Below are positions 5,151 through 45,452 of a stretch of 64,000 nt of DNA, piece by piece. The notes beneath the pieces were generated by a model. That model ran no database searches and was not told where the DNA came from. It was given only the letters and a program-made list of their open reading frames with translations. A program made the translations under genes and the position numbers. Within the stretch, counting starts at the first letter, position 1, and each line of letters starts with the position of its first letter. The DNA is taken from positions 11,242 to 75,241 of the IMG/VR virus record IMGVR_UViG_3300020414_001694; one strand, 5' to 3'. The stretch is from a virus. Its lineage: Duplodnaviria; Caudoviricetes.

Positions 5151-5365
5151 TACGATTCCTTTTCTGTTAATTTAACTAAATCTGATTCTTTTAGGAAGGC
5201 GGTCCAAGTGCCAAATCTTACAACATACTTTCTTTCTCTCACCTCTACAACAATTCCGTGCCCTTTGAGGCAATGGTCTTCTTCTTTCTCTTCCAAGTGT
5301 TTCCACTCTTCCGTCTCGTTGTTGATTCGAACTAAGTCGCCTTTTTCTAATTTGCTATCGCTCAT
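5150..5365 (-). CDS. Small SH3-like paralog (KGDLVRI...)
   Basis: GDLV, HGIVVEV, SDLVKL. Confidence 0.75.
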   Translation of the reverse strand: MSDSKLEKGDLVRINNETEEWKHLEEKEEDHCLKGHGIVVEVRERKYVVRFGTWTAFLKESDLVKLTEKES

Positions 5366-5367
5366 GA

Positions 5368-5535
5368 TTATAAATAGTTTTTTCTTAATTTGAGGATTAC
5401 TTTATCTCGCTTTTTGGCAAGTTTATATATCTCCTCATCTATGGTCGCCTTCTCCCTAGTAAGATTCACTATCTTCAAATTCAACCTTGATATCTTCATA
5501 GAAAGTTTTTCTTTTTCTTCTTCTTTTTCTTGTGC
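5368..5535 (-). CDS. Short coiled-coil protein
   Basis: MAQEKEEE...; heptad-like; start approximate. Confidence 0.45.
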   Translation of the reverse strand, partial: AQEKEEEKEKLSMKISRLNLKIVNLTREKATIDEEIYKLAKKRDKVILKLRKNYL

Positions 5536-5755
5536 CATAATGCACCTCCAATAAACCGCTGTCGATACTTTCATACACCTTCTGCTTTGATGCCCTGTCT
5601 TCTGTTATTTGAAAAACTGGATTATCTCCCATAGTGGAGGACATTAGATAGAAGTGAAAGTAATGCCTTGTTGACTTCACTATCAAACCAAGTGCCGTGT
5701 TCTTCGAATTATGTAGCAAGTCTCCAACTCGGAGGTGATACTTTCCTTCCGTCAT
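5456..5755 (-). CDS. SH3-like hypothetical protein (LRVGDLL...)
   Basis: GDLL...LGLIV motif. Confidence 0.6.
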   Translation of the reverse strand: MTEGKYHLRVGDLLHNSKNTALGLIVKSTRHYFHFYLMSSTMGDNPVFQITEDRASKQKVYESIDSGLLEVHYGTRKRRRKRKTFYEDIKVEFEDSESY

Positions 5756-5758
5756 CCA

Positions 5759-6244
5759 TCAAAACTCCAAACTCTTTATGTGATAGTCCTCAACACTCAT
5801 AAGTGTAAGAGAGTCTGGGTGATAGACAACTGCTTCAAGAAACAAGACCTCCGTGACAATACCCATCAGTCTGGCAAGTTCTTGCTTCTCATGATTAATG
5901 TCTCTTATCTGAAACTCTGCTTTCTTTAGGACAACCTTCTCCCCTCCAATAAGGGTTGCTCTGATGTTCCCCATTGCTGCAATGCGTGAGTTGAAAGCAA
6001 GTTTTTGTCTTATCATTGCTTCCTTTGTTGTCCCTTTCCAGTGACTAAAAGGTTTTTGAAAATCTGAATAGTCCATCCAGTTTATGACTGTGTGCTTGTG
6101 CTCCTTCACCATCTCTCCTATAACGCCCATCGTCTGAACTATATCGAACTCGATAGTCTCCATAGCAGTGAAAACATCTAGTGGTTCAGAATATACTGTG
6201 CGAACCACCTGTGGTAACTCAAATTTTAAAATATTAGAAGACAT
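5759..6244 (-). CDS. Hypothetical protein
   Basis: 161-aa ORF in operon tiling. Confidence 0.7.
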   Translation of the reverse strand: MSSNILKFELPQVVRTVYSEPLDVFTAMETIEFDIVQTMGVIGEMVKEHKHTVINWMDYSDFQKPFSHWKGTTKEAMIRQKLAFNSRIAAMGNIRATLIGGEKVVLKKAEFQIRDINHEKQELARLMGIVTEVLFLEAVVYHPDSLTLMSVEDYHIKSLEF

Positions 6245-6841
6245 TTAATCCTCGTACTCATCGTCGGTTGGATAGTATCCACTATCACAGTTTTCATAAA
6301 GTCCATCGTTCGGGTCGTCATCGTCAGCACCGAACCACTCATCGAGAACCTGAGAGAAAGGGTCGGAACTCGAAGTTGCTGACCGAATTGGTGGCGAGTT
6401 CGATACCTTTACACTTTTGTTTGTCGATGTCCTTACTGGTGGTGGTGGAATGATAGGTGCCATTGGTTGAGTAACCCTTTCATCCCTATCTTTATTGTTT
6501 TTCTTTAGTTTCTCTTTTACTGAATCTGTTGCACTCTTGTTTCTCTTCCTTCTCCACTTTTCATCAAAGTTGTCGATAACCAGACTAGGATAAACGATTG
6601 GAATATGAGAGTTTCCAGCGTGATATACTCTCACTTTTTTACCATCATCGAGAGTAAGTGTCGGGTCGCAATCTCTATAGTCAGAGTGGGCAACGAGACC
6701 TGCTGCTGTCAGTTCCAGACTCTTTGTAGTAGGATATCCAGATGAAGTTAGACCAGGAACTCTTATGCTGAACAAACCAGTGGGACCAGGAGTGATAATC
6801 ATTCTTTTTCCATCCTTGTAAAAAGAAATGTGTTTAATCAC
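6245..6841 (-). CDS. Hypothetical protein with Pro/Ser-rich linker and acidic tail
   Basis: 198-aa ORF in operon tiling. Confidence 0.7.
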   Translation of the reverse strand: MIKHISFYKDGKRMIITPGPTGLFSIRVPGLTSSGYPTTKSLELTAAGLVAHSDYRDCDPTLTLDDGKKVRVYHAGNSHIPIVYPSLVIDNFDEKWRRKRNKSATDSVKEKLKKNNKDRDERVTQPMAPIIPPPPVRTSTNKSVKVSNSPPIRSATSSSDPFSQVLDEWFGADDDDPNDGLYENCDSGYYPTDDEYED

Positions 6842-7226: not shown

Positions 7227-7550
7227 TTAGATTCCAAAACTTTCGCCACATCCGCAGGTTCTTTTCGCTGTCGGATTTTCAAATTTAAAACCTGATTGTC
7301 CCAATTCATTTCTGTAATCTATCTGAGTTCCCATAAGGTAGAGAAGTGATTTTCTGTCTATCACTATCTTTACACCGTGACTCTCCAACTCCCTATCCTC
7401 ATCTTTCACTTCATAGGCGTATTTAAGTTGATAAGTAAACCCCGAGCATCCACCGCCCTGGACACCAACACGTACACCAATTGGTCTAGGGTCCATGTTC
7501 GAAAAGAAGTTTTTCAAAGCATCTGCTGCTGCTTCAGTCAAGGTTATCAT
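7227..7550 (-). CDS. iscA: A-type Fe-S carrier (IscA/HesB family)
   Basis: GGGCSGFTY and CGCGESF motifs. Confidence 0.95.
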   Translation of the reverse strand: MITLTEAAADALKNFFSNMDPRPIGVRVGVQGGGCSGFTYQLKYAYEVKDEDRELESHGVKIVIDRKSLLYLMGTQIDYRNELGQSGFKFENPTAKRTCGCGESFGI

Positions 7551-13881: not shown

Positions 13882-14544
13882 ATGGTAAAAAAAATTCGTC
13901 GTAAAGTCAAAAAGATTACAATGAAAGCATCTCTCGTTAGCATGGAACTCGAAGATTTGACTGAGGAGAATAAGGAGCAAAAGAACAAACTCTCCAAAGA
14001 TTTCGAAGACGAGTTTGCCTTCATCGAATGGAAGCGGCAACAAGAAATGAAACAAAAGGAACAAGAAAGTCCTGAAGAGAAACCAGAAGTTCCCCCTGAT
14101 GTTCCCCTAGACGAAGACGGACGTGTTGAAAGTAGTACTCCACCTGATACTCCTGATGAATTAAAAAAACTTTATCGCTCTATCGCTCAGAAAACTCATC
14201 CTGATAAAGTACAAGACGAAGAACTGAACGAAATATTCAAACTTGCTGCCGAAGCAGTTGACGAAGAAAACTGGATGCTCCTCGTCGAACTTGCTGGTGA
14301 ATTAAGACTAGACATTGACTTTCTCTCTGATGAAACTCTCGAACTGATAGAGCAAAGTATCGAACGCAATCAAAAACAAATCTCTGGAATCAAAAACTCT
14401 TTCTCTTACATTTGGTGTAGTCAAAAAGATGACAAAGGAAAGGAAATCTTCAAAGCACTCTTCTACAAACAGTTCAAAATAAATAAAGAAGAGTTTGCAG
14501 AGTGGTTAAAAAATAAACCTACTCCTTCTTGTCAAAAGTCATAG
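13882..14544 (+). CDS. J-domain (DnaJ-like) protein
   Basis: LKKLYRSIAQKTHPDK; only credible plus-strand gene. Confidence 0.85.
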   Translation: MVKKIRRKVKKITMKASLVSMELEDLTEENKEQKNKLSKDFEDEFAFIEWKRQQEMKQKEQESPEEKPEVPPDVPLDEDGRVESSTPPDTPDELKKLYRSIAQKTHPDKVQDEELNEIFKLAAEAVDEENWMLLVELAGELRLDIDFLSDETLELIEQSIERNQKQISGIKNSFSYIWCSQKDDKGKEIFKALFYKQFKINKEEFAEWLKNKPTPSCQKS

Positions 14545-20775: not shown

Positions 20776-21297
20776 TCAGTCTTCTTGTTGTGGTTTGTAA
20801 AGAGTTTTTATCTCTCCCTCTTCTGTTGGAAAAGAAGAGATTTCAACATTCGCAAACCCACTTTCTTTCAACTGTTCTAGGTTAGGTGTTCCTGAGAAAA
20901 TTACATTTCTAACTGCGTCAAAAGGAATGTTTGTTCCGAGAGTATCGACCATGTTATCGACACCAGAACCTGACATTGCTGCTGAATCCTTCATTCTCAC
21001 CCTGCACCCTTTTGAGTTTGGATAAGATTCATATTGCATCGAACCCTCAAGGAATGCCCCATCAATCTCTAGAACGACGTTACCAAACGATTTTGCATCT
21101 TGAGGGTCAGAGCAAGTCGGAACGCCCATCTTGTCCTGCTCAATATCTAAATCTGTTGGCAAGTTTACGATTCCGTTGTCTCTGATGTTTGGTAAATTCT
21201 GAATGTCTGTTCCGTAATAAACCTTCATTGGAAAACCTTTGTCCGTCATCGCTGTTTCTTGGAGGTATTTTCTCCACTCTGTTAAAATCTTTTTCAT
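20776..21297 (-). CDS. ART/Tpt1-like fold protein with 'EWRKYL' N-terminus
   Basis: VYYGT...I..NG, TCSD..DA..FG.VVLEID, IPFDAV. Confidence 0.45.
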   Translation of the reverse strand: MKKILTEWRKYLQETAMTDKGFPMKVYYGTDIQNLPNIRDNGIVNLPTDLDIEQDKMGVPTCSDPQDAKSFGNVVLEIDGAFLEGSMQYESYPNSKGCRVRMKDSAAMSGSGVDNMVDTLGTNIPFDAVRNVIFSGTPNLEQLKESGFANVEISSFPTEEGEIKTLYKPQQED

Positions 21298-23940: not shown

Positions 23941-24318
23941 TTAGATGTATTTTTTCCAGTGGTAGAACGGACGGTTTTCAAGATACAAAGGGTCGTTCTC
24001 ATGCGTATATGCTTCTTCCTCGAATGCATTAGAATAGTACGCTTCTCTGCCTGACTTCTTTGCCATGACACCTCGCAACCAGTACCACCCGTATAATATC
24101 CATTGCCCGATGAATAGGCACTCGACCTGCTGGGCAAAATGGATTCGCTCGTGCCTTATGGTTACTGGAGACATGATGCCTCGACACCAGACAAATGGAC
24201 CAAAAGATATAGCCCAAATGTCTATTGGTGCGAAGTGTGATAAAAAGACTGGAACTTTGGAATTCTCAATCATTATCGGTTTTAAATTTCTTATTTTATT
24301 TAATAGTCTTTTTAACAC
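23941..24318 (-). CDS. Minimal zincin-like metalloprotease
   Basis: HERIH and FEEEAY. Confidence 0.75.
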   Translation of the reverse strand: MLKRLLNKIRNLKPIMIENSKVPVFLSHFAPIDIWAISFGPFVWCRGIMSPVTIRHERIHFAQQVECLFIGQWILYGWYWLRGVMAKKSGREAYYSNAFEEEAYTHENDPLYLENRPFYHWKKYI

Positions 24319-24333: not shown

Positions 24334-24429
24334 TTAGCAGCAACCTTTCTCGCAGTTGCAGCAACCGCAACAACAGCAGCAATGCTTCGGGTCAAATAGA
24401 GTGACTAATTTGTGTAAAAACTTTTTCAT
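24334..24429 (-). CDS. 31-aa metallothionein-like peptide (10 Cys)
   Basis: MKKFLHKLVTLFDPKHCCCCCGCCNCEKGCC*; AGGAGG SD; below ORF-track cutoff. Confidence 0.8.
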   Translation of the reverse strand: MKKFLHKLVTLFDPKHCCCCCGCCNCEKGCC

Positions 24430-24468
24430 GATAATATCCTCCTGACAGTGTTTACAAATTAAATAGTA

Positions 24469-24849
24469 TCAGGAATTTTGTTTTTCTCTGTAATCTTCGA
24501 TGGCAGATTTGATTGCGTCCTCTGCAAGCACTGAGCAGTGGATTTTTACTGGAGGAAGCGAGAGGTGCTCTGCGATATCCTTGTTTTTTACCTCTTTTGC
24601 TTCGTCCAAGGTCATGCCCTTCAACCACTCTGTTGCGAGCGATGACGCTGCGATTGCAGAACCGCAACCATAAGTTTTAAAGCGTGCCTCTTTAATAACG
24701 CCGTCTTCAACTTTTATTTGCAGGCGCATCACATCTCCACAAGCAGGAGCACCGACCAAACCAGTACCAACGTCAAGCGCATTCTTGTCCAGGGTGCCTA
24801 CGTTTCTTGGATTCTCGTAGTGGTCTAGAACTTCTTTTGAGTAAGTCAT
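24469..24849 (-). CDS. iscU: Fe-S scaffold protein
   Basis: HYENPRNVG, APACGD, GCGSAIA, LPPVKIHC. Confidence 0.97.
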   Translation of the reverse strand: MTYSKEVLDHYENPRNVGTLDKNALDVGTGLVGAPACGDVMRLQIKVEDGVIKEARFKTYGCGSAIAASSLATEWLKGMTLDEAKEVKNKDIAEHLSLPPVKIHCSVLAEDAIKSAIEDYREKQNS

Positions 24850-25298
24850 AGATTGCTCTTGTCTTGCCATTCGTGAGAAATTTGGTCATCAACGATAGGA
24901 CCGCCCTTTGCCCAAGTGTAGCAAGACCTAGCAGAGTGGCACTTGAAGTGGTGCATCCAGCAGTAACCCAACTCTCCGTCCTTGTCGGTAGTTACACCTG
25001 GCATACATTCTTTCATTCTAGGAGAAATGTCGAAGGCGACACAATTAGAGCAGTTAGATTTCTTTGCTGCCTTCTCTGTAGTGTCCCAATATTTTGCGAT
25101 GTCTTTCCAGTAGTCGCCAGGTTCATCAACATTCAATGGACCGTATTTTATGTGGTCTGCGTGGATGGCAGCATCTCTATTCTTCGTGTTGAGTTTCAAG
25201 TCTTGAGTTGCTGGTGGGCAAACGTAATCCTTTACCTTTCCCACAGTGACTTTCACCTCGCTCATAAACTTGCGCCAATTTTCCATTAATTGTTTCAT
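24846..25298 (-). CDS. HiPIP-like Cys protein with 'ENWRKF' N-terminus
   Basis: CSNC...GYC-x12-CYTW; ATGA overlap with iscU. Confidence 0.55.
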   Translation of the reverse strand: MKQLMENWRKFMSEVKVTVGKVKDYVCPPATQDLKLNTKNRDAAIHADHIKYGPLNVDEPGDYWKDIAKYWDTTEKAAKKSNCSNCVAFDISPRMKECMPGVTTDKDGELGYCWMHHFKCHSARSCYTWAKGGPIVDDQISHEWQDKSNL

Positions 25299-25301
25299 AA
25301 T

Positions 25302-27296
25302 CTATCTCTTTGTGTAACTCTTGGTTACTTTGCCCTTTTTTGTAGCAGCAACGTTTTGCTTGCCCTTCTTTGTGCCTGCTCGCTTCTTTGCGTTGTCTGC
25401 TGCCTTTTCACCCTTAGACATCTTCGCCCACTTTGCCTTTGGTTTGCAACGCTCAACTGAACCGTCTTCACGACCATCGCCACAAGGTGTTCCATCAGAG
25501 TGAACCCACTTTTCGTCTGCCCACTTTTGTAAGTCACCCTCTTCGATGCTCTCGTCTTTCTTGCCTCGACCGTAGTTATCATCTTTACAGTATTTAGAAG
25601 CAATCTGTGCTGCACGAGCAGACCAGTTCTTGAGAACACCGTCTTCACACTTAACATCTTTAATCCCTGGCGAGTCAGAGTTTACAACAAACTTTAGACC
25701 TGCTGTGCAAATCTCTTTGTCAGAGTAGCAACCGCCTTCTTCTTCAAGTCGTTGGACAATAGTTTCCCTGACTCTTGTGCGAAGTGCTTCGTCTGCTTTG
25801 ATGCAGTTACGATATTGTTTGCCGAACATTTCTTTTGTCTTTCTGGTAGGATGTGTCTTGTAACCCTTTTGGCACTTGCCCGCTTCTTCGAGTTTGCCAA
25901 TGACATCCTCAATCACCATACGAATTTCTTCAGTGGTATACTCTTCTTTCATAGACTTTTTACCACGGCATTTCCACTTCTTTCTGGAAAGGTTGTTAGG
26001 AGTGTTGGGGTCATTCTGCTTTTCTTTGGACAACCCTTTCTTGATTCCGTAAGAGCGAGCGCAATAACTATCTCCCTTAGAAGTACCTGGAGCAATCCTG
26101 TATCCCTTTGCTCCATAACTAACTTTTTTCTTTCTACCAGTCTTGGGATTAGTCACAGTCTTTGAATATTTCTTGCCCTTTGCTGGTTCTTCATCGAGCA
26201 TATTCAAAACCTCTTCCTTAATCTTTTGTATCAAATCTTCATTCTTGACCTGTGCAGGGAGACCCTTGTGCTTGGTTCCAGCAAAATCATCAACCTGCTT
26301 TGTAGTCATTTTATCTGCTTTGCTCTTCATTTCTGCGTCGGGGCAATCGCCGTCCTCTTTGCACTTTTTTAACATACCGAAGTATCTTTGTTGCGCCTTA
26401 GAGACTGCTTTTTCATCAAGTTCTCCTTCTTCCTTCATCTTGATAGGTTTTACGATACTCCTTTGATACTCGCCGTCGTCCTTATCTAAAATCTTTTCTG
26501 CTACATGCCCAACAACATCTGCAACGGTCGCCTGCTCGTTTGTCTTTCTCAATTGAGAAAGAATTTTTGAGACATCGCCTGAGTCCATTGCCTGAAAAAC
26601 TTTTATTACGAGTTCGTAAAGTCCTTCCTTTGTGTAACCAAACTCGTCAACCTTATCGTTGAGAGCGTCCATGTCATCCATCGAAAGAACTGCTTCGTCA
26701 ACCTTTTCAGAAGATAAAGACATCAAGGTATTCCAGTGTTCATCTGATATACCCCTCGGAGGTTTGCCATCAGTCTTCTGAGCAATAGCATCCAGTGCCG
26801 ACCTGTACTTCTTTTTTGATTTTGGCGTTGGATTATCAGAAAGGTTATGTACCATGTCTGCCAATTTTACACGAAGAGTGGGAACGTCACCCATCAAACC
26901 GACAACATAAGACTGGTAATCCCCACCTTTTTCGTGGGTTAGGGCACGAACAACCCTGATAACTTCATCTGCTGATGCTGGGTCTTGAATCGAACCCTTA
27001 ATGTAATCTTCCATCTCCTCGACCGTCGATACAGTAGAACCAGGAGCATCTTCAAGGGCATCATGTAAAAGTGCTGCCATCTGAATAACATTGTCTTTTG
27101 GATAAAACTTTCTCGCAATATTCCTGACCTCTGATGGATGAGAGAAATAGTCCGAACCATCTCTTCTCTTTTGACCAACGTGTGCCATCTGTGCTGTCTG
27201 ATAGACATCTTTAAAGTCTTCTGGTGAAAACTTCTCTTCTACTTTTTTATTTTCTCGCAAGTACTTTTGCCAATTGTCTGTAATCTTGTTGCTCAT
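25302..27296 (-). CDS. Multidomain protein: RelA/SpoT-type HD hydrolase plus basic Cys-containing modules
   Basis: AHVGQKRRDG..YFSHP, LLHDALED, VKLADMVHN. Confidence 0.85.
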   Translation of the reverse strand: MSNKITDNWQKYLRENKKVEEKFSPEDFKDVYQTAQMAHVGQKRRDGSDYFSHPSEVRNIARKFYPKDNVIQMAALLHDALEDAPGSTVSTVEEMEDYIKGSIQDPASADEVIRVVRALTHEKGGDYQSYVVGLMGDVPTLRVKLADMVHNLSDNPTPKSKKKYRSALDAIAQKTDGKPPRGISDEHWNTLMSLSSEKVDEAVLSMDDMDALNDKVDEFGYTKEGLYELVIKVFQAMDSGDVSKILSQLRKTNEQATVADVVGHVAEKILDKDDGEYQRSIVKPIKMKEEGELDEKAVSKAQQRYFGMLKKCKEDGDCPDAEMKSKADKMTTKQVDDFAGTKHKGLPAQVKNEDLIQKIKEEVLNMLDEEPAKGKKYSKTVTNPKTGRKKKVSYGAKGYRIAPGTSKGDSYCARSYGIKKGLSKEKQNDPNTPNNLSRKKWKCRGKKSMKEEYTTEEIRMVIEDVIGKLEEAGKCQKGYKTHPTRKTKEMFGKQYRNCIKADEALRTRVRETIVQRLEEEGGCYSDKEICTAGLKFVVNSDSPGIKDVKCEDGVLKNWSARAAQIASKYCKDDNYGRGKKDESIEEGDLQKWADEKWVHSDGTPCGDGREDGSVERCKPKAKWAKMSKGEKAADNAKKRAGTKKGKQNVAATKKGKVTKSYTKR

Positions 27297-27589: not shown

Positions 27590-27616
27590 AAAGAAAAAGG
27601 CACCCGAAGGTGCCTT
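27590..27616 (-). terminator. Intrinsic terminator after hsp20
   Basis: AAGGCACC-TTCG-GGTGCCTT followed by U-tract. Confidence 0.85.
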
Positions 27617-28426: not shown

Positions 28427-28774
28427 TTAATGTTTTTTTAGAGATACATTCTGGGAGAGAAGTGTGCCTTCTAAATTAAGAATCCCTATAAGAAGTTCAG
28501 TAATGGTGAGGTAATCTAAGTCCTCAACAACAATAGAGTTTTCTGGAACCTTAGCACCTCGGGCGTTCACCTCTTTCTGCATTGTCTTCATTATTATTTC
28601 TTTGATTCTCGTGCATCCTGCATAGAATTCACACAAGTCCTCAACCAAGGGTGTCCCTTCTTCCTTGCTTGCCTCTTCTTTGAGAAAATAATAGCAGACT
28701 TTTCTGTATTCTTCAAGCATCTCTATTGCGTCTAAGAACTCTTGTTGAGGTACAGCAATAATTTTATCTTCCAT
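28427..28774 (-). CDS. Hypothetical protein
   Basis: 115-aa ORF. Confidence 0.65.
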   Translation of the reverse strand: MEDKIIAVPQQEFLDAIEMLEEYRKVCYYFLKEEASKEEGTPLVEDLCEFYAGCTRIKEIIMKTMQKEVNARGAKVPENSIVVEDLDYLTITELLIGILNLEGTLLSQNVSLKKH

Positions 28775-29087
28775 GCTCTTTATCTTTCACTGCGCTGTAA
28801 TAGTCTTGCGCTTGCTCCAATGTTTGCAAGTCTAGAACTTTAAATTTTCTTTTTCTTAATGCTTCTGCTGCGAGTCTTGCTCTTTTGCCTGTGGCACAAT
28901 AGACAACTATTGTTTTATCCTTTGGGATTTTACCTTCCCAAAATCCAAGAGAAGTTGGCGTGGCAATTGCTCTGACTTTTCTACTCGGCAAGTTATAAGA
29001 ACCTTCAATGTTTTTTTCTTCAAACTCCGACTCTTCTCTTACGTCCAAGAAAAAGTATTCTTCTAACTCCTCTTTGGATAATTTCAC
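28764..29087 (-). CDS. Single-domain rhodanese (sulfurtransferase)
   Basis: LDVRE.SEF...I.GS, VVYCATGKRA. Confidence 0.9.
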   Translation of the reverse strand: MKLSKEELEEYFFLDVREESEFEEKNIEGSYNLPSRKVRAIATPTSLGFWEGKIPKDKTIVVYCATGKRARLAAEALRKRKFKVLDLQTLEQAQDYYSAVKDKEHGR

Positions 29088-29919: not shown

Positions 29920-30413
29920 AACAAGGCACGCCTCTTCATCTTGACTGGTACGCTTTGACCCTCGCCCCATACGAAGCGAGACTTACGCTTGTTCGTAACC
30001 ATAAGAACTTCAAGAACGAGTTGCCCGTCCTTCTCTCTTGGAGTTAGTTTCGCAGGTTCTGGTTGTAAAATTCCAAACAAAGGTTTGGTAATTCTTTTCT
30101 GAAACTTTCTCCTGACAGGTGGTTTGTTTAGAAACTTTATACATCCTCTGTAAATGTCCTCGATGGAGTGTCCTTCTGATAGAAGTTGTTTCCAGTCAAT
30201 CACGATGTATCCACCGATGACCCAACGATTAACACCGAAACCTTTTATACTCCAAAAATTAGAACCGTGATAGCGAGCAAGACGAGTTTCGTCGCCACTT
30301 TCTTCCGAATTAATTCGAAGAGTCTGAAATTCGTTTAGTTCCAAAAGTTTACACTCGAATTCTGGACCGTCTATAACTGGAACCTCTTCTACTGTTCGTT
30401 TTCTTCTTGGCAT
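29916..30413 (-). CDS. Hypothetical protein
   Basis: 165-aa ORF. Confidence 0.7.
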   Translation of the reverse strand: MPRRKRTVEEVPVIDGPEFECKLLELNEFQTLRINSEESGDETRLARYHGSNFWSIKGFGVNRWVIGGYIVIDWKQLLSEGHSIEDIYRGCIKFLNKPPVRRKFQKRITKPLFGILQPEPAKLTPREKDGQLVLEVLMVTNKRKSRFVWGEGQSVPVKMKRRALL

Positions 30414-30682
30414 TCTGCCTCTCTTTCAAGATGTTTTACAAGTTCGGTGTACCCTCCGATAAACTCTTCATGAATCTCATCATTGTCAGTAACAACAAAC
30501 TTTGAAATAATCGGGACAGTGCTGTGATTGTATCTCTTCTTTGCCTCGTTTAGTGCCACGTCTTCCCAGTCATAGTATCTTGCATAGTACTCACGAGGTT
30601 CAGAGGAAATCAACTGCATTGCAGACTCGCAATATGGACACCCATCTGCAAGGTATAAAGTGTAATAAACTCTGCTGTCCAT
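30389..30682 (-). CDS. Glutaredoxin/NrdH-like protein
   Basis: CPYC, STVP, FIGGY.EL. Confidence 0.9.
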   Translation of the reverse strand: MDSRVYYTLYLADGCPYCESAMQLISSEPREYYARYYDWEDVALNEAKKRYNHSTVPIISKFVVTDNDEIHEEFIGGYTELVKHLEREAECQEENEQ

Positions 30683-34583: not shown

Positions 34584-36209
34584 TTAATTTTCTTCTTTCT
34601 CAAGTCTCTCAGCAATGTCGAGTAGTTTCCCGAGGTACTTGGTTTTCTCAACGTAGTGACGAACATTCTTTATTGTTTCGCCCTTGCCTTCAACTCTCAT
34701 TCTTATTTCGATTAGAGTCTCATTGTTCCCATCATCTCTGATAAGAATTTTAGGAAAACCGCTTGAAGACTGAGTATACTTAACCCCTAGTTTAAAGTTC
34801 TCTCTTCTCCTAAACACGTCTTCCAGTTTATCATCAAAGTTTAGTACTTTGTAATCGCCACCGTCGAAGTCAACTAAGAAAACACCCTTCTCGCCTCCAG
34901 TTGCTGCCTTTCGGACACCATACATGATGCTCTGGATAACATCAACTTGCTCTTCTGGTTTGTCTCTTCGAAGTGCTGGTTCCCTGGCAAGTTCATCAAC
35001 AATATCTTTGTAAACTGCTTGCCCTGCTGCGATAACCGCTGCTTTTTCTCTATTTGAAACTGCGGTTTTCCAAGGTTCCTCAAGTGCTGAGTCGGGTTTT
35101 ATTCCAAACATGTCAGAAAGCAAACCTGAAAGTTTATTCCAGTCGCCGCTACCAACTTGACCCATCGTCTTAGAACCTGCTTTTAGTGAAATGCTTCCGA
35201 GTTTGGTAAACTTGCCATCAACTTTAACTTGAACATCTACTTTGGTGCCTGTTTGGTCCGAGACACCATCTGAAATAACTTCTATCACGTTAGGGTTCTT
35301 GTCCATTTCCTGCTGCATTGCTTCATCAACAATCGCTTCGCCGTTGACGTATGCTACTGCTGACTTATAGTGATTAGACAACTCTGAGTGCCATTTTGGG
35401 TCCACCAGTCCTTCATAGTTTCCAGTAGATAAAGCAACCCTAAACGAAATTTCGTCTACTCCATTTTTGCCTTTGAGAGTCTTGTCTACCTTTTTGGGGT
35501 TATCCTTCTCGGCATCGGGTCTAACACTTATCATCTCCAGTACTTTCTTGACTGCTGAATCTGTAACCTTGAGTTCAGGGTTCATAAACTTTGCATAAAG
35601 GGCAGCACCAAGGATGCCTTCCGCAATGTCGCCCTTGTTTATGTTTTTGCCAAAAGGTTTGTAAACATATTTTGCAAGATTTCTCTTTCCGCTCTTAACC
35701 ACATATCCAATTGGAGTGCTCTTGTCGGTTGCCAGGAGAGTGTTGATAGCGGTAGCGTCTGGAAAACTGGTCTGAAGAACAGATTTCAAAGCATCCATCA
35801 ATCCCGCTTCTTGTCTAAGAAAGGTGGGTACTCCTATCTTTCTTAACTTTGGGTCGCCATAAACCGTAATATCTTCCAAGTTTACGTCTGGACTGTTTGC
35901 CTTGACAAATTCTTTTGTAGCAGCGAGTACTTTTGCGTCTAGTTCTGCGTCAACCTGTTCCTCCAAAACACCAAAACCAGCAGGTGCTGACTTTGAGCGT
36001 TCTTTTGGTGGGTCTTCGTCAAATGGTTCACCACCTGTTTTCTTGGTGCCCTTAGTAGACAACCTCATTGAAGAGTGTTTCTTGATAATATCTGAGTCTT
36101 GATAACCCTCTTCCAAGAGAACCTGCTCAACAAGTTCATAAATGGTTTCAGCGTCAATCTTGCTCTTTTTCTCGTAATGCTCTTCAATGAGTTTTTCCCA
36201 ATTTGCCAT
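34584..36209 (-). CDS. PD-(D/E)xK-like protein with putative head-targeting N-terminus
   Basis: GDIAEG, TKVDVQV, ISLK; starts MANWEKLIEE. Confidence 0.55.
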   Translation of the reverse strand: MANWEKLIEEHYEKKSKIDAETIYELVEQVLLEEGYQDSDIIKKHSSMRLSTKGTKKTGGEPFDEDPPKERSKSAPAGFGVLEEQVDAELDAKVLAATKEFVKANSPDVNLEDITVYGDPKLRKIGVPTFLRQEAGLMDALKSVLQTSFPDATAINTLLATDKSTPIGYVVKSGKRNLAKYVYKPFGKNINKGDIAEGILGAALYAKFMNPELKVTDSAVKKVLEMISVRPDAEKDNPKKVDKTLKGKNGVDEISFRVALSTGNYEGLVDPKWHSELSNHYKSAVAYVNGEAIVDEAMQQEMDKNPNVIEVISDGVSDQTGTKVDVQVKVDGKFTKLGSISLKAGSKTMGQVGSGDWNKLSGLLSDMFGIKPDSALEEPWKTAVSNREKAAVIAAGQAVYKDIVDELAREPALRRDKPEEQVDVIQSIMYGVRKAATGGEKGVFLVDFDGGDYKVLNFDDKLEDVFRRRENFKLGVKYTQSSSGFPKILIRDDGNNETLIEIRMRVEGKGETIKNVRHYVEKTKYLGKLLDIAERLEKEEN

Positions 36210-36222
36210 CTTCTTTATTCCT

Positions 36223-36963
36223 TTAGATAATAATATCAGCAATGCCGAAATCAACTGCTTGCTGTGCGTCAAGGTAAATGTTGACTTTCTTGTCAAGAAG
36301 TTTCTTTACCATTCTTCTTGTCATGTCCGTCTCACGTACAAGAACGTCGATATATCGTTCCTGAACCCATTTAATTTCCTCAACCTCATTTTCAATGTTG
36401 TGAATAGGACCGTGAGCACCAGCAATAACAGAGTGAATCATAACACGAGTGTTGCGACCGATTCTGCGACTACCCTTAGTGCCAGAGGCAAGAATTAAAA
36501 CACCTGCTGACATAACCTTGCCGATGCCCGTTGTGATAATCGGACACTCTTCCTGAACGACACGCATCATATCACAAATGCCGAACATGTCAAGTGCTGA
36601 ACCGCCGAAAGTTGATACAATCATCTCGATAGGGAGAGATTTCTCAATGATTTCAGAATTCATGTCAGTTGGGTCTGCAAGAACCTTTTTCTTTCCTGTC
36701 TCACGAAGTGTCAAAAGTCCTGCGACCACTTCGAGTGCCATTCTTTCCGATACGTCGCCAATAACTGGTACGACTCTCGGTTTCTTTTCGGCGGTACTAC
36801 CGCCTGTCATTGGTGGAAGGAGAATGATTGACTTTCCGTCTCCACCGCCTGCGAGTTGTTCAAGCAACTCTTCATCTGTGAGTTCTTCCTCTAACTCTTC
36901 AACTTGTTCTTCCTGAACTTGCTCCTCCTGGATTTTTTCTTCTTTCTTTTTCTTTTTAGGCAT
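36223..36963 (-). CDS. clpP: ClpP-family protein (copy 2) with acidic N-terminal extension
   Basis: TFGGS, MSAG, MIHS, A..FGIAD; Asn at the catalytic Asp position. Confidence 0.85.
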   Translation of the reverse strand: MPKKKKKEEKIQEEQVQEEQVEELEEELTDEELLEQLAGGGDGKSIILLPPMTGGSTAEKKPRVVPVIGDVSERMALEVVAGLLTLRETGKKKVLADPTDMNSEIIEKSLPIEMIVSTFGGSALDMFGICDMMRVVQEECPIITTGIGKVMSAGVLILASGTKGSRRIGRNTRVMIHSVIAGAHGPIHNIENEVEEIKWVQERYIDVLVRETDMTRRMVKKLLDKKVNIYLDAQQAVDFGIADIII

Positions 36964-42032: not shown

Positions 42033-45000
42033 TTATGCTAATAATTTAAAATTATGTCTGATGGAACGAGTTGAGAAACCCCACTGTTCACTATAGTCTA
42101 GTCTTGCCATGTAAGGTTTATTAATCTCGACCACATCTGTGTCCCTGACACCCCAACACTTAATTGTGCTAATAGTAGAAGTTGAATCAATAACCTTGAC
42201 CATCCAATACTTCTTGTTATTCTTCGTCTTTCTTTCAATAACTTCACGAGGAATAAACCAAGCAACTGGAACCTCTGGGTAGAAATCACCAAGTGGTGGA
42301 ATGTCACTGTTCTCTAACTGTTCTCGGACTGATGCTGACATAACCAAGTGAATAGGAAACATGCCAGTCAAGTTAGTCTGGTGCTCAATCATCTCTTCCT
42401 TAGAGAAGTCACCCTCTGGTTCATAGAGTTCAATGTTCTCGTGAAACTTCTTCTTTGTCTTTGCCCTGTCTACTGCCACGGCAGACCAGAAATGTCTTGT
42501 ACCCTTGAACCTCTCATCCATAAGAGGCATAAGTGCTTCTGAGCGAACAAGAACGTCCAGTGCCTTCTTATTTAATTTAGAGTAAACAACCCTATCGTGA
42601 AACAAGAATTCCTCAATCGTATTAAACGGACGGAAATTAAGAATCTGGTCTATTGCTGCATCACCCAAACCTTTGATAGAAGAGAATGGTTGAATTAGCG
42701 CACCGTCGTCACCAATCTCCCAGTTACGAGTTGACAGGTTGATATCAAGAGGACGTATCTCAAAACCCATCTTCTTAGCAGTGTTGATTGCTCGCTCTTT
42801 TCTAGACTCTGGTTCTTTATCCAAGAATGCCGCCATCCACTCAACTGGGTAGTAGTTAAGCAACCAAGCGCACTGATAAGATAGAATAGAATAGGAAACT
42901 GCGTGAGACTTATTAAAACCATACCCTGAGAAGAACTCAAAGGTTTCCCAGAGTTTGGTTGCCTTATGCTCTGGAATACCTTTCTCAACGCACCCCGTAA
43001 CAAACTTTTGATAAATCTTATTCTTCTCCTCGGCACCCTTGCCAGTGCCCTTCTTGGTAAGCAACTTACGAAGTAAGTTACCTTCATCAAGAGAAACATC
43101 TTTACCTAGTTTGTGAGCGAGAAGTGCAATTTGTTCCTGAAAGATAAGGAACCCATAAGTCTCCTCTGTCACTTCTTTGATAGTCGGATGAATATATTCT
43201 ACTCCATCTGGATTTTCTTTTGCTCGGACATAACTTCTGTCAACCTTGGCAGAAAGTGGTCCTGGGCGAAAGATAGAAGTAATAGCAGAGATATCAACAA
43301 TACTTCTAGGTTTAGCGTTTACACAGAAGTTCTGCGCTCCTGTCTCCGTAAACTGGAATACTCCTGCCCACTTGCCCTTATGAAAGATATTTTCATAAAC
43401 CTCTTGGTCATCAAAATTGATAACATCGGGATGCAAGTTCTCCTGATAGTATTTCTTGATGTCGGCAAATGTAGGTTTCCTGACACCCTTATGACGAACA
43501 AGAATAGAGCGAATTGCATCTTCCATCATTCGGAGAGAAGCAAGTCCAAGAATATCAAACTTAATGAAACCCATTGGTTCCAGATGACGAACATTCTGAC
43601 CCTCGGACCAAGGTGTTTGACGAACACCGCCAGAAGTAATAAGAGGCATTTGCTTGTGTAAGTCGTCTGCGATTACCACACCACCAGCGTGACGTGAAGA
43701 AGAACGCACTTGTCCGTATAGTGCTTCAACGTGCGTCTTGACGTGGGGATACTGTTGTAGAAATCTTTGCAAAGTGTCTGAAAACTCCATTACTTCTTCA
43801 AACGTAGGAGTGTAAACACCAGCAGAAATGTTGTGCTTCGCCTTTGCTTTTGGCGTTGCCTCTGCCATCATCCTACCAGTCACATTATTCACCTCATTGA
43901 AAGGTATCTTGTAAAACTTAGAGATATCTTTAATAAGAGAACGCAACTGCAAGGTGTTCCAGTTTGTAATCGGAACAACAGTGTTTTCGCCCCACTCTTC
44001 AACTAACTTTTCTTTAAGTTCCATTGGCGAACTTACATCGTAGTCAATATCTGGATAGTCTTTTGCGTCGGAACGTAAGAACCGAGAAAAGAGAAGTCCA
44101 TATTTAATTGGGTCTACCTGGGTAATACCCAAGACGTATGCCACAAGTGAACCTGCTGCTGAACCTCGCCCTGGACCTGTAAGTTGCTCCTGCGTTGCTC
44201 TATCCGCAATTGCTTTCATTGTCAAGAAATACTTTGAGAAACCTCTATCGGCAATGACGTTTAGTTCTAATTTAAGTCTTTCAACGTAGTCTTTCTTCTT
44301 AGATAACTTAAAGTTTCTCAACCCCTCAATAGAAGCGGCGACGAGTGCCTCATCTGCTGTCTTGCCTGGGGGTACTACAAAGTCAGGCAAACGAACTTCG
44401 TTACTTGGGTAAAAAGATTCAATCATCTCGTGAGCAATCTTATGTGTTACAACAATACTTTCTCTAATAACATCATCGTCATACTCAACGCCTGCTTCTG
44501 CTGAATACTTCTTGTAACTTTCCCACATCTGGTCGCCATTCTTTGGGTAAAGTTCGTAACCTACTTCTTCTACGTCAATAGGAAGTTCGGTGTCCATTTC
44601 CTTGCCCTTACCTAACCACCCCAACTTCTTGTAAAGAATCCTGTCTTTCCAAGATTCAGAAGTAGGATAGTGACTATCCGCAGTTGAGACAAGGGTTAAA
44701 TCAAACTCTTTTGCGACCTGAATCACAAACTTATTTAAATCATGCTGCTCTTCAATATTGTTCCACTGCAACTCACACAGAAACCTATCTTTCCCAAGAA
44801 TAGAAGTCATACGCTTGGCAGTTTCTCGCATGGCATTCAGAACTGCCTCATCACCATCTTCTCTATTTCTCCACATATCACCAGCGAACAAACCACCGAG
44901 ACAAGCGGTTGATACAATGATGCCCTCAGAGTGCTGCTCTAACATATCGTAGTCAATTCTTGGGAAACGATAAAAGTTATCACCCTGAAAAGACTTAGAA

Positions 45001-45452
45001 ATAAGTTGGAATATGTTTTCTAAACCTTTTTGGTTCTGGGCAAGAATAACAAGGTGATGACGCCTGTTCACAATAGATTTATATGTTCTTACCTCAGTCT
45101 CAACGACAGCACCAGAAGTATTTGTATCCTTTAGGGCAGCAGCATTCTTTTTATTCTGTTTTGCCACCTCCATATCTTCTTTCCACTGCTTAATGGAGGG
45201 ATGGAAATACGCCTCTACGCCAAAGATTGGTTTGAAGTCTTTACCAGACTTCTGCATCTTCTTAGCGTGTAGAACCATTTCTGCGAGTGCATTCTGGTTG
45301 CCGTGGTCTGTAATGGCGAAAGCATCAAGACCATTTTCATAAGCAGAGTCCATATGCTCTGATACGTATCCCAATGCATCAAAAGGAGAACCACCCACAG
45401 AGTGAGCGTGAAGTCCTACGAACGGTAAATTAGACTGAAGTCTATCTGTCAT
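42033..45452 (-). CDS. dnaE: Family C DNA polymerase III alpha
   Basis: PHP LHAHS/ITDHG, GRGSAAGS, PDIDYD, KFDILGL, YGFNKSH. Confidence 0.97.
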   Translation of the reverse strand: MTDRLQSNLPFVGLHAHSVGGSPFDALGYVSEHMDSAYENGLDAFAITDHGNQNALAEMVLHAKKMQKSGKDFKPIFGVEAYFHPSIKQWKEDMEVAKQNKKNAAALKDTNTSGAVVETEVRTYKSIVNRRHHLVILAQNQKGLENIFQLISKSFQGDNFYRFPRIDYDMLEQHSEGIIVSTACLGGLFAGDMWRNREDGDEAVLNAMRETAKRMTSILGKDRFLCELQWNNIEEQHDLNKFVIQVAKEFDLTLVSTADSHYPTSESWKDRILYKKLGWLGKGKEMDTELPIDVEEVGYELYPKNGDQMWESYKKYSAEAGVEYDDDVIRESIVVTHKIAHEMIESFYPSNEVRLPDFVVPPGKTADEALVAASIEGLRNFKLSKKKDYVERLKLELNVIADRGFSKYFLTMKAIADRATQEQLTGPGRGSAAGSLVAYVLGITQVDPIKYGLLFSRFLRSDAKDYPDIDYDVSSPMELKEKLVEEWGENTVVPITNWNTLQLRSLIKDISKFYKIPFNEVNNVTGRMMAEATPKAKAKHNISAGVYTPTFEEVMEFSDTLQRFLQQYPHVKTHVEALYGQVRSSSRHAGGVVIADDLHKQMPLITSGGVRQTPWSEGQNVRHLEPMGFIKFDILGLASLRMMEDAIRSILVRHKGVRKPTFADIKKYYQENLHPDVINFDDQEVYENIFHKGKWAGVFQFTETGAQNFCVNAKPRSIVDISAITSIFRPGPLSAKVDRSYVRAKENPDGVEYIHPTIKEVTEETYGFLIFQEQIALLAHKLGKDVSLDEGNLLRKLLTKKGTGKGAEEKNKIYQKFVTGCVEKGIPEHKATKLWETFEFFSGYGFNKSHAVSYSILSYQCAWLLNYYPVEWMAAFLDKEPESRKERAINTAKKMGFEIRPLDINLSTRNWEIGDDGALIQPFSSIKGLGDAAIDQILNFRPFNTIEEFLFHDRVVYSKLNKKALDVLVRSEALMPLMDERFKGTRHFWSAVAVDRAKTKKKFHENIELYEPEGDFSKEEMIEHQTNLTGMFPIHLVMSASVREQLENSDIPPLGDFYPEVPVAWFIPREVIERKTKNNKKYWMVKVIDSTSTISTIKCWGVRDTDVVEINKPYMARLDYSEQWGFSTRSIRHNFKLLA

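Follow-up and report, generated by a model that had tools for sequence, protein, structure and literature searches.

Positions 24,334 to 25,298 of a 64-kb stretch of phage DNA raise the question of whether three genes packed closely together on one strand form a dedicated locus for loading iron-sulfur (Fe-S) clusters, or are neighbours of one another and nothing else. The stretch, referred to below as the window, makes up the right-hand 64 kb of an IMG/VR record of 75 kb (IMGVR_UViG_3300020414_001694), whose completeness is estimated at 41%. In the direction of transcription its minus strand encodes a leader-tagged protein of 150 amino acids (aa) with a phage-specific Cys domain, which is predicted to have the fold of high potential iron-sulfur proteins (HiPIPs) (24846-25298), the Fe-S cluster scaffold IscU, product of an auxiliary metabolic gene (24469-24849), and a 31-aa microprotein with ten Cys residues (24334-24429). 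An initial annotation had taken these for a scaffold co-translated with a likely client, itself destined for the virion, and followed by a metal-binding peptide. The account favoured here, with modest confidence, is that the three adjacent genes are independent elements in a hyperplastic cargo and auxiliary region of uncultured marine phages of ~150-190 kb, and that the HiPIP-fold variant is leader-tagged cargo.

The CxxC...GxC-x12-CxxW pattern that the initial annotation had read in the open reading frame (ORF) coupled to iscU is present in the 150-aa protein as C83/C86/C113/C126/W129, in the full arrangement C83-x2-C86 ... G111-Y-C113-x12-C126-x2-W129. At 90% identity the homologues of comparable length fall into 2126 clusters, at 50% there are 758 representatives, and 822 longer fused forms were also found. 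Alignment of homologues places the core domain at residues 27-135 (24894-25220, minus strand), with seven cysteines at C27, C83, C86, C98, C113, C120 and C126. Since all seven are retained in 232 of 236 homologues, the Cys motif is no chance pattern. Five aromatic residues (Y52, W64, Y112, F118 and W129) are invariant in the alignment; H116 is substituted in ~5% of the homologues and H117 in ~15%. Covariation between C27 and C98, looked at as a sign of a disulfide pair, was set aside, the signal coming from one sequence only.

Searches of Pfam, NCBIfam and, by both phmmer and profile, PDB sequences with the 150-aa protein gave no match. The nearest ESM Atlas clusters are 100% viral, and among 185,579 prokaryote species genomes (one genome per species) the domain was found in only nine loci; the family is restricted essentially to phages. 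These nine loci (L204-L212), with 56-78% identity, lie on contigs of metagenome-assembled genomes (MAGs) assigned to unrelated phyla (Opitutia, Saprospirales, WOR-3, Nitrosopelagicus, Microbacteriaceae and others), an archaeon among them, and are probably phage contigs mis-binned into the MAGs. A collection of 50,697 phage records yielded seven weak matches to the 150-aa protein, and seven homologues in GenBank phage records carry the independent automated name 'high potential iron-sulfur protein'.

An AlphaFold2 model of the 150-aa protein, built on 33 homologues, reached a pLDDT of 86.8 and a pTM of 0.76. In an unbiased VIA-align scan of this model over 48,161 representative PDB chains, only ten chains attained a Z-score of at least 2, and all ten were HiPIPs or HiPIP-like [4Fe-4S] small subunits of glycyl-radical enzymes. 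The top match was Chromatium HiPIP (Z 5.2, 81/85 residues aligned), with residues 32-133 of the phage protein mapped onto HiPIP chain residues 1-84. Foldseek against the PDB also ranked HiPIPs first, with poor E-values (0.4-3) and none at E ≤0.001. The structural comparison with HiPIP that the initial annotation had proposed gave none but HiPIP-type matches at Z ≥2, and these were weak (Z 4-5). Four real HiPIPs from Bacteroidota genomes, each above the Pfam cut-off, were used for comparison at the level of sequence. They read C-x-N-C ... G-G-C-x12-C-T-x-W and the phage domain reads C83-S-N-C86 ... G-Y-C113-x12-C126-Y-T-W129; the x12 spacing is the same in both, and the ligand spacing had been correctly likened to that of HiPIPs. 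An aromatic cage makes HiPIP clusters oxygen-tolerant, and the invariant aromatics of the phage domain would fit a cage of this type. The four real HiPIPs carry Tat-type RRDF leaders, whereas the N-terminus of the 150-aa protein is a helical leader, MKQLMENWRKFMSE, with no Tat or Sec signal.

Motif counts and codon variation make this 14-residue leader (25257-25298, minus strand) a candidate tag, either for capsid targeting or as a propeptide. The motif M..(L)xxW[RQ]K[FY][LM]xE stands at the start of three ORFs of the record, at 21297, 25298 and 27296. Across 80 related IMG/VR loci, in which the HiPIP-fold gene shows 66-83% identity, the motif heads 127 of 1196 ORFs, 43 of them HiPIP-fold genes and 84 encoding other, unrelated proteins, and it occurs internally only nine times in 232,157 residues. 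The leader is written in 68 distinct nucleotide versions; every one of the six Arg codons occurs at position 9, and position 4 has six Leu codons, and because of this synonymous variety the constraint lies on the peptide and not on the DNA. A role as a DNA-level signal, such as a recombination or promoter cassette, was ruled out by the same extensive variation. The leader that the initial annotation had attributed to the ORF is therefore a conserved, peptide-level tag common to many unrelated proteins, and it is this leader, not linkage to iscU, that organises the locus. In phage T4 the capsid-targeting sequence (CTS) is the only conserved part of otherwise diverse internal proteins, and by this analogy, which is one of function only, the leader would be a capsid-targeting tag. 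In related phages three or more different proteins encoded immediately downstream of the Cys-rich microprotein (L178:1166-1940, L201:3047-3490) begin with another conserved leader, MPKFYRQNKKRIDPRYFLNET; a regular-expression search did not find it in the window.

The architecture of the wider family bears on where the protein might act. Among the 149 best representatives, 66 are at least 300 aa long, and the domain may stand at any position within them. Its fusion partners include Portal_Mu (P0191), guanylate kinase, DUF5824, DUF5754, YbjQ, XkdF-type prohead protease, cytidylyltransferase-like domains and glutaredoxin, and models in BFVD that contain the domain are named portal protein, XkdF, prohead protease or Dps. 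In phage DSL-LC01 the gene lies between that for a ~3300-aa protein and the capsid protease and major capsid genes. Because fusions of the domain to portal and prohead-protease proteins recur, a location in the capsid, and with it a role for the HiPIP-like protein as capsid cargo, is plausible, and these ties to head assembly are its chief support, of an indirect kind. In the long polyproteins P0155, P0160, P0163, P0173, P0185, P0217 and P0221 the residues leading into the domain very often read ...[FY][EQ]AEM-x-CPPATQD, a recurrent junction that could be a processing site. Elsewhere the domain is fused to a Dps-named (ferritin-like) protein of 290 aa (BFVD A0A6J7WQS6) and to a glutaredoxin domain (P0308, 454 aa), and these two fusions hint at iron or redox chemistry.

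Taken together, these data suggest the following sequence of events. The 150-aa protein consists of the 14-residue leader, a linker helix and a phage-restricted domain of ~110 residues, which most likely wraps a buried [4Fe-4S] cluster; the three extra Cys residues may form a second site or a disulfide. The leader would direct the protein into the procapsid, as the T4 CTS does, and would then be removed by a head protease; the compact, metal-stabilised domain would be carried inside the head, and might pass into the host together with the DNA. IscU is the product of an ordinary auxiliary gene, of a kind known from other marine phages, which where present can do no more than assist the loading of Fe-S proteins of phage and host. 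Its clients may include the HiPIP-like protein, but most relatives do without a phage iscU.

The scaffold gene itself presents little difficulty. Its product matches TIGR01999 at 219.5 bits against a cut-off of 192.4, PF01592 with an E-value of 1.7e-51, and phrog_8429, and the three Cys residues (in ACGD, GCGS and HC), the Asp and the LPPVK motif can all be read, from which IscU is predicted to be a full, intact equivalog scaffold. The overlap with the HiPIP-like ORF is also as described in the initial annotation: the plus strand reads TCAT at 24846-24849, the iscU ATG begins at 24849, and the stop codon of the 150-aa ORF overlaps it as ATGA. Linkage of the two genes across relatives is another matter. 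iscU was found within 6 kb in two of the 80 related loci. At any distance, it was found in three of 20 large relatives (97-193 kb) that carry the domain, and in one of the seven of these that are at least 95% complete. The order of the genes is variable, and the Cys-rich microprotein has no conserved neighbour. The three-gene order of client, IscU and Cys peptide, whose conservation had been put forward as a check, is thus not conserved, and the dedicated Fe-S loading locus fails on one of the points that had been named beforehand as refuting it, the lack of a conserved linkage to iscU. When IscU itself was used as an IMG/VR query, mostly unrelated lineages were returned; IscU is so conserved that such a query makes a poor test of linkage.

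The microprotein is real and conserved on its own account. In the window an AGGAGG sequence lies 7 nucleotides (nt) upstream of its start codon, and the peptide, MKKFLHKLVTLFDPKH-CCCCCGCCNCEKGCC, has its ten Cys residues within 15 positions. An exact-pattern scan of IMG/VR recovered 29 further copies. Together with those of the window and of locus L055 these amount to 26 distinct nucleotide sequences, with mixed TGT and TGC codons and varied Leu and His codons, and the stop codon and a GGAGG-type Shine-Dalgarno sequence are conserved across the copies. The consensus is MKxxLHKL[VA][NT]LF[ND]xxH-CCCCCGCC[SA]C-x2-5-C..., which probably describes an amphipathic helix followed by a thiolate-rich, metal-binding tail. 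Cys density is the one indication of a metallothionein-like character. No match was found in Pfam, NCBIfam or PHROG and no neighbour in the ESM Atlas, and the commonest neighbouring gene occurs in seven of 31 loci. A reading of the peptide as the precursor of a ribosomally synthesised and post-translationally modified peptide was ruled out, neither a maturase nor any other gene being a conserved neighbour. Of the proposal that IscU is followed by a metal-binding peptide, the ten-Cys ORF and its conservation therefore stand, and a fixed linkage to iscU does not.

Several observations weigh against the account favoured here. The Z-scores for the fold are modest, the best being only 4.7-5.2, and the HiPIP family model PF01355 finds no match at E ≤10 either in the protein and its 33 homologues or in a six-frame search of a single genome; it also finds none in five genomes that carry the domain. 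Profile-profile alignment with hhalign against the four real HiPIPs covers 12 columns only, in the C-x-N-C stretch, with a probability of 1.2%. The conserved cysteines number seven and not four. As regards processing, the leader of the 150-aa protein ends in M-S-E, most paralogues end in L-x-E, and the head protease of the window is ClpP-type (PF00574), not of the gp21 (U9) type of prohead protease, for which reason the (L/I)xE cleavage rule cannot simply be transferred. Finally, among the six cases in which iscU is carried, it abuts the HiPIP-like gene in three, in two different orders and on separate branches of the domain tree. Since PF01355 is silent, the hhalign alignment is weak, an export signal is lacking and three Cys residues are extra, the 150-aa protein is filed as a new HiPIP-fold variant and not as a HiPIP.

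Direct adjacency in three of six cases, in two orders, leaves room for a real functional link and is more than we would expect from random placement. The strongest form of such a link would be the dedicated module, in which the coupled IscU builds a [4Fe-4S] cluster for a packaged HiPIP-like client, with the Cys peptide serving to buffer metal or sulfur. Beyond the ATGA coupling, which is real in the window, this idea can draw on locus L178, where the HiPIP gene is followed by iscU and the coordinates indicate the same 4-nt junction, and on L055, where IscA and IscU are encoded directly upstream of a HiPIP-domain fusion. The separation of iscU from the HiPIP-fold gene is 3.8 kb in genome G015 and 12.6 kb in G013, so that in five of the six cases it amounts to 0-13 kb, and the genomes concerned fall in separate branches of the domain tree. 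A subfamily of Cys peptides ending in GCC has iscU nearby in four of about eight loci, and IscA, glutaredoxin, rhodanese and a J-domain protein are all encoded in the window. Against this, the HiPIP-like gene is kept without iscU in 17 of the 20 large relatives, including six of the seven genomes at least 95% complete, and 78 of the 80 loci have no iscU within 6 kb. The Cys peptide has no conserved neighbour, and in locus L190 an IscU-IscA-CysK set stands in a stretch with no HiPIP-fold gene. Moreover, the domain tree is short and poorly resolved, and because of this the independent recruitment of iscU is not established. Shared synteny and the concentration of auxiliary genes in a mosaic region are simpler explanations of the adjacency, and both the dedicated module and the narrower claim that iscU is preferentially recruited beside the HiPIP-fold gene appear improbable. 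In L190 itself (5212-6797) the genes for IscU, IscA and a CysK-like protein, with a PLP cysteine synthase-type N-terminus, come after two leader-tagged genes and a Cys peptide, and the sulfur and Fe-S auxiliary gene set is larger than that of the window.

As to the domain itself, seven conserved cysteines leave room for Zn or disulfide chemistry. The protein might be a Zn- or disulfide-stabilised Cys knot that is HiPIP-like in topology only and serves, without any Fe-S cluster, as a small stable cargo or inhibitor module. The mostly conserved His116, the lack of a sequence-profile match to HiPIP, Z-scores of only 4-5, the passage of virions through oxic sea water and the occurrence of Cys-paired Zn-ribbon-like units as neighbouring modules in the polyproteins are all in keeping with such a knot. 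It would not be expected from a set of structural neighbours which, at Z ≥2, are [4Fe-4S] proteins without exception, nor from ligand spacing and flanking G-Y-C and C-x-x-W residues equal to those of real HiPIPs, from invariant aromatics that appear to fit the HiPIP cage, or from the fusions to glutaredoxin and to the Dps-named protein, and we regard it as a possible but rather unlikely explanation. A third view would keep the cluster and dispense with the capsid, making the protein a soluble electron carrier, comparable to phage ferredoxin or plastocyanin, that is active in the infected cell and never packaged, with the leader as a helix for assembly or regulation that has nothing to do with capsids. 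In its favour, electron transfer is what HiPIPs do, auxiliary genes abound in the window and in some small phages the gene stands among early-type genes; however, the protein has no signal peptide where real HiPIPs have their RRDF leaders, the family is phage-restricted and not host-derived, and the polyproteins that contain the domain also have portal and protease parts, which together make this view very improbable. The reading of the domain as leader-tagged cargo with a HiPIP-type cluster, standing next to an iscU that is a separate element, is the one favoured. A more far-reaching version of it would have an abundant marine phage lineage packaging an oxygen-tolerant HiPIP-fold [4Fe-4S] domain as leader-addressed cargo, either alone or in injected polyproteins, some members having repeatedly recruited iscU (with iscA) directly beside the domain for cluster supply. 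Such cargo would be the first case of an Fe-S redox module that phages deliver along with their DNA, and marine viral particles would hold an unrecognised pool of iron; this version we put forward tentatively and consider unlikely.

The surroundings of the three genes fit a densely packed auxiliary region. The window has a G+C content of 41%, and nearly all of its genes lie on the minus strand. Upstream of the 150-aa ORF, and stopping only 3 nt before it, is the gene for a 664-aa multi-module protein (25302-27296, minus strand) with the leader MSNKITDNWQKYLRE, a SpoT-type HD domain at its head (HD_4/HD), DUF3008 and several PHROG modules. No terminator-like site was found between the genes for the HD protein, the HiPIP-like protein, IscU and the Cys peptide, the nearest good one being at 27597-27616. 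The third leader-tagged ORF (20776-21297, minus strand) encodes a 173-aa protein, MKKILTEWRKYLQE, which has no match in family searches. The IscA, rhodanese, glutaredoxin and J-protein that the initial annotation had seen elsewhere in the window were all located: an auxiliary gene for an IscA-type Fe-S carrier at 7227-7550 (minus strand; PF01521, E 5.9e-23), rhodanese at 28764-29087, glutaredoxin at 30389-30682, by family match, and the J-domain protein at 13882-14544 on the plus strand. Directly after the Cys peptide, at 23941-24318 (minus strand), lies the gene for a 125-aa protein, which contains an HExxH motif (HERIH) and has a match in phrog_15610 'protease'; its homologues are encoded 1.5-6 kb from the HiPIP-fold gene in loci L051 and L057.

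The ClpP-type head maturation protease, a candidate for the enzyme that would process the leader, is encoded at 36223-36963 (minus strand; PF00574, E 6.2e-29; phrog_94); its N-terminal extension is very acidic. Next comes the gene for a 570-aa protein (34584-36296, minus strand; phrog_3560) that starts with MANWEKLIEEHYEKK, and the two are probably the head module, ~10 kb from the leader-tagged genes. The replicative polymerase, at 42033-45452 (minus strand), is a DnaE-type Pol III alpha subunit. Since no phage in the collection of 50,697 records has a polymerase more than 30% identical to it, the lineage is one without a cultured relative; a megablast search of 20 kb against cultured phages likewise gave no match.

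No Pfam model covers the domain family, which is labelled publicly only by the automated 'HiPIP' name on a few records. Should the domain hold an Fe-S cluster and travel in the capsid, Fe-S chemistry would join the repertoire of injected phage proteins. There would also be a definite viral client for the Fe-S auxiliary genes that marine phages carry for unexplained reasons, and there would be an effect on how much iron is bound up in the particles of marine viruses. Should it not, the apparent three-gene 'system' would be a product of tight packing in a mosaic region.

Among known proteins, HiPIPs (PF01355) and the BSS beta/gamma and 4-HPAD gamma subunits are the sole structural neighbours of the phage domain in the PDB. 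HiPIPs and the phage domain have in common the C-x2-C ... G-x-C-x12-C-x2-W spacing and a core rich in aromatics. The phage domain is larger (~110 residues, against ~60-85 for the matched HiPIP chains), with a loop 12 residues longer and three extra conserved Cys residues, and unlike HiPIPs it has no Tat or Sec signal, is essentially confined to phages and is often one module of a polyprotein. Sets of IscU, A-type carrier (ATC) and glutaredoxin (Grx) genes are patchy in large marine viral genomes, and it has been proposed that they supply Fe-S proteins encoded by the viruses themselves (Nishimura et al. 2017, PMC5332604); the clients listed there are radical SAM enzymes, Cas4 and PaaD, a HiPIP-fold protein not being among them. 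The window resembles these genomes in that IscU, IscA and Grx occur in a large marine phage and are patchy among its close relatives.

Precedents for the proposed cargo role are found in three further systems. Polyvalent proteins are multi-domain mosaics tied to the portal and head, for which packaging and injection have been proposed (Iyer et al. 2017, PMC5512222); no iron-sulfur or Cys-rich domain resembling the present one is mentioned in that survey. Architectures of this type do include the HiPIP-fold domain, whereas in the window it stands alone behind its leader. The tail-tip protein gpL of phage lambda carries a [4Fe-4S] cluster and so provides a precedent for Fe-S in a phage virion, but it is a structural protein of unrelated fold, and neither head cargo nor a mobile module. 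The T4 internal proteins (IPI-III) with their CTS differ in the sequence of the leader and in the protease (gp21/U9 in T4, ClpP-type here); both have in common a short N-terminal leader ending in Glu, borne by diverse, unrelated small proteins at variable loci. Set beside these systems, what appears to be new is a very large, unstudied, phage-only family of HiPIP-fold domains behaving as a cargo module.

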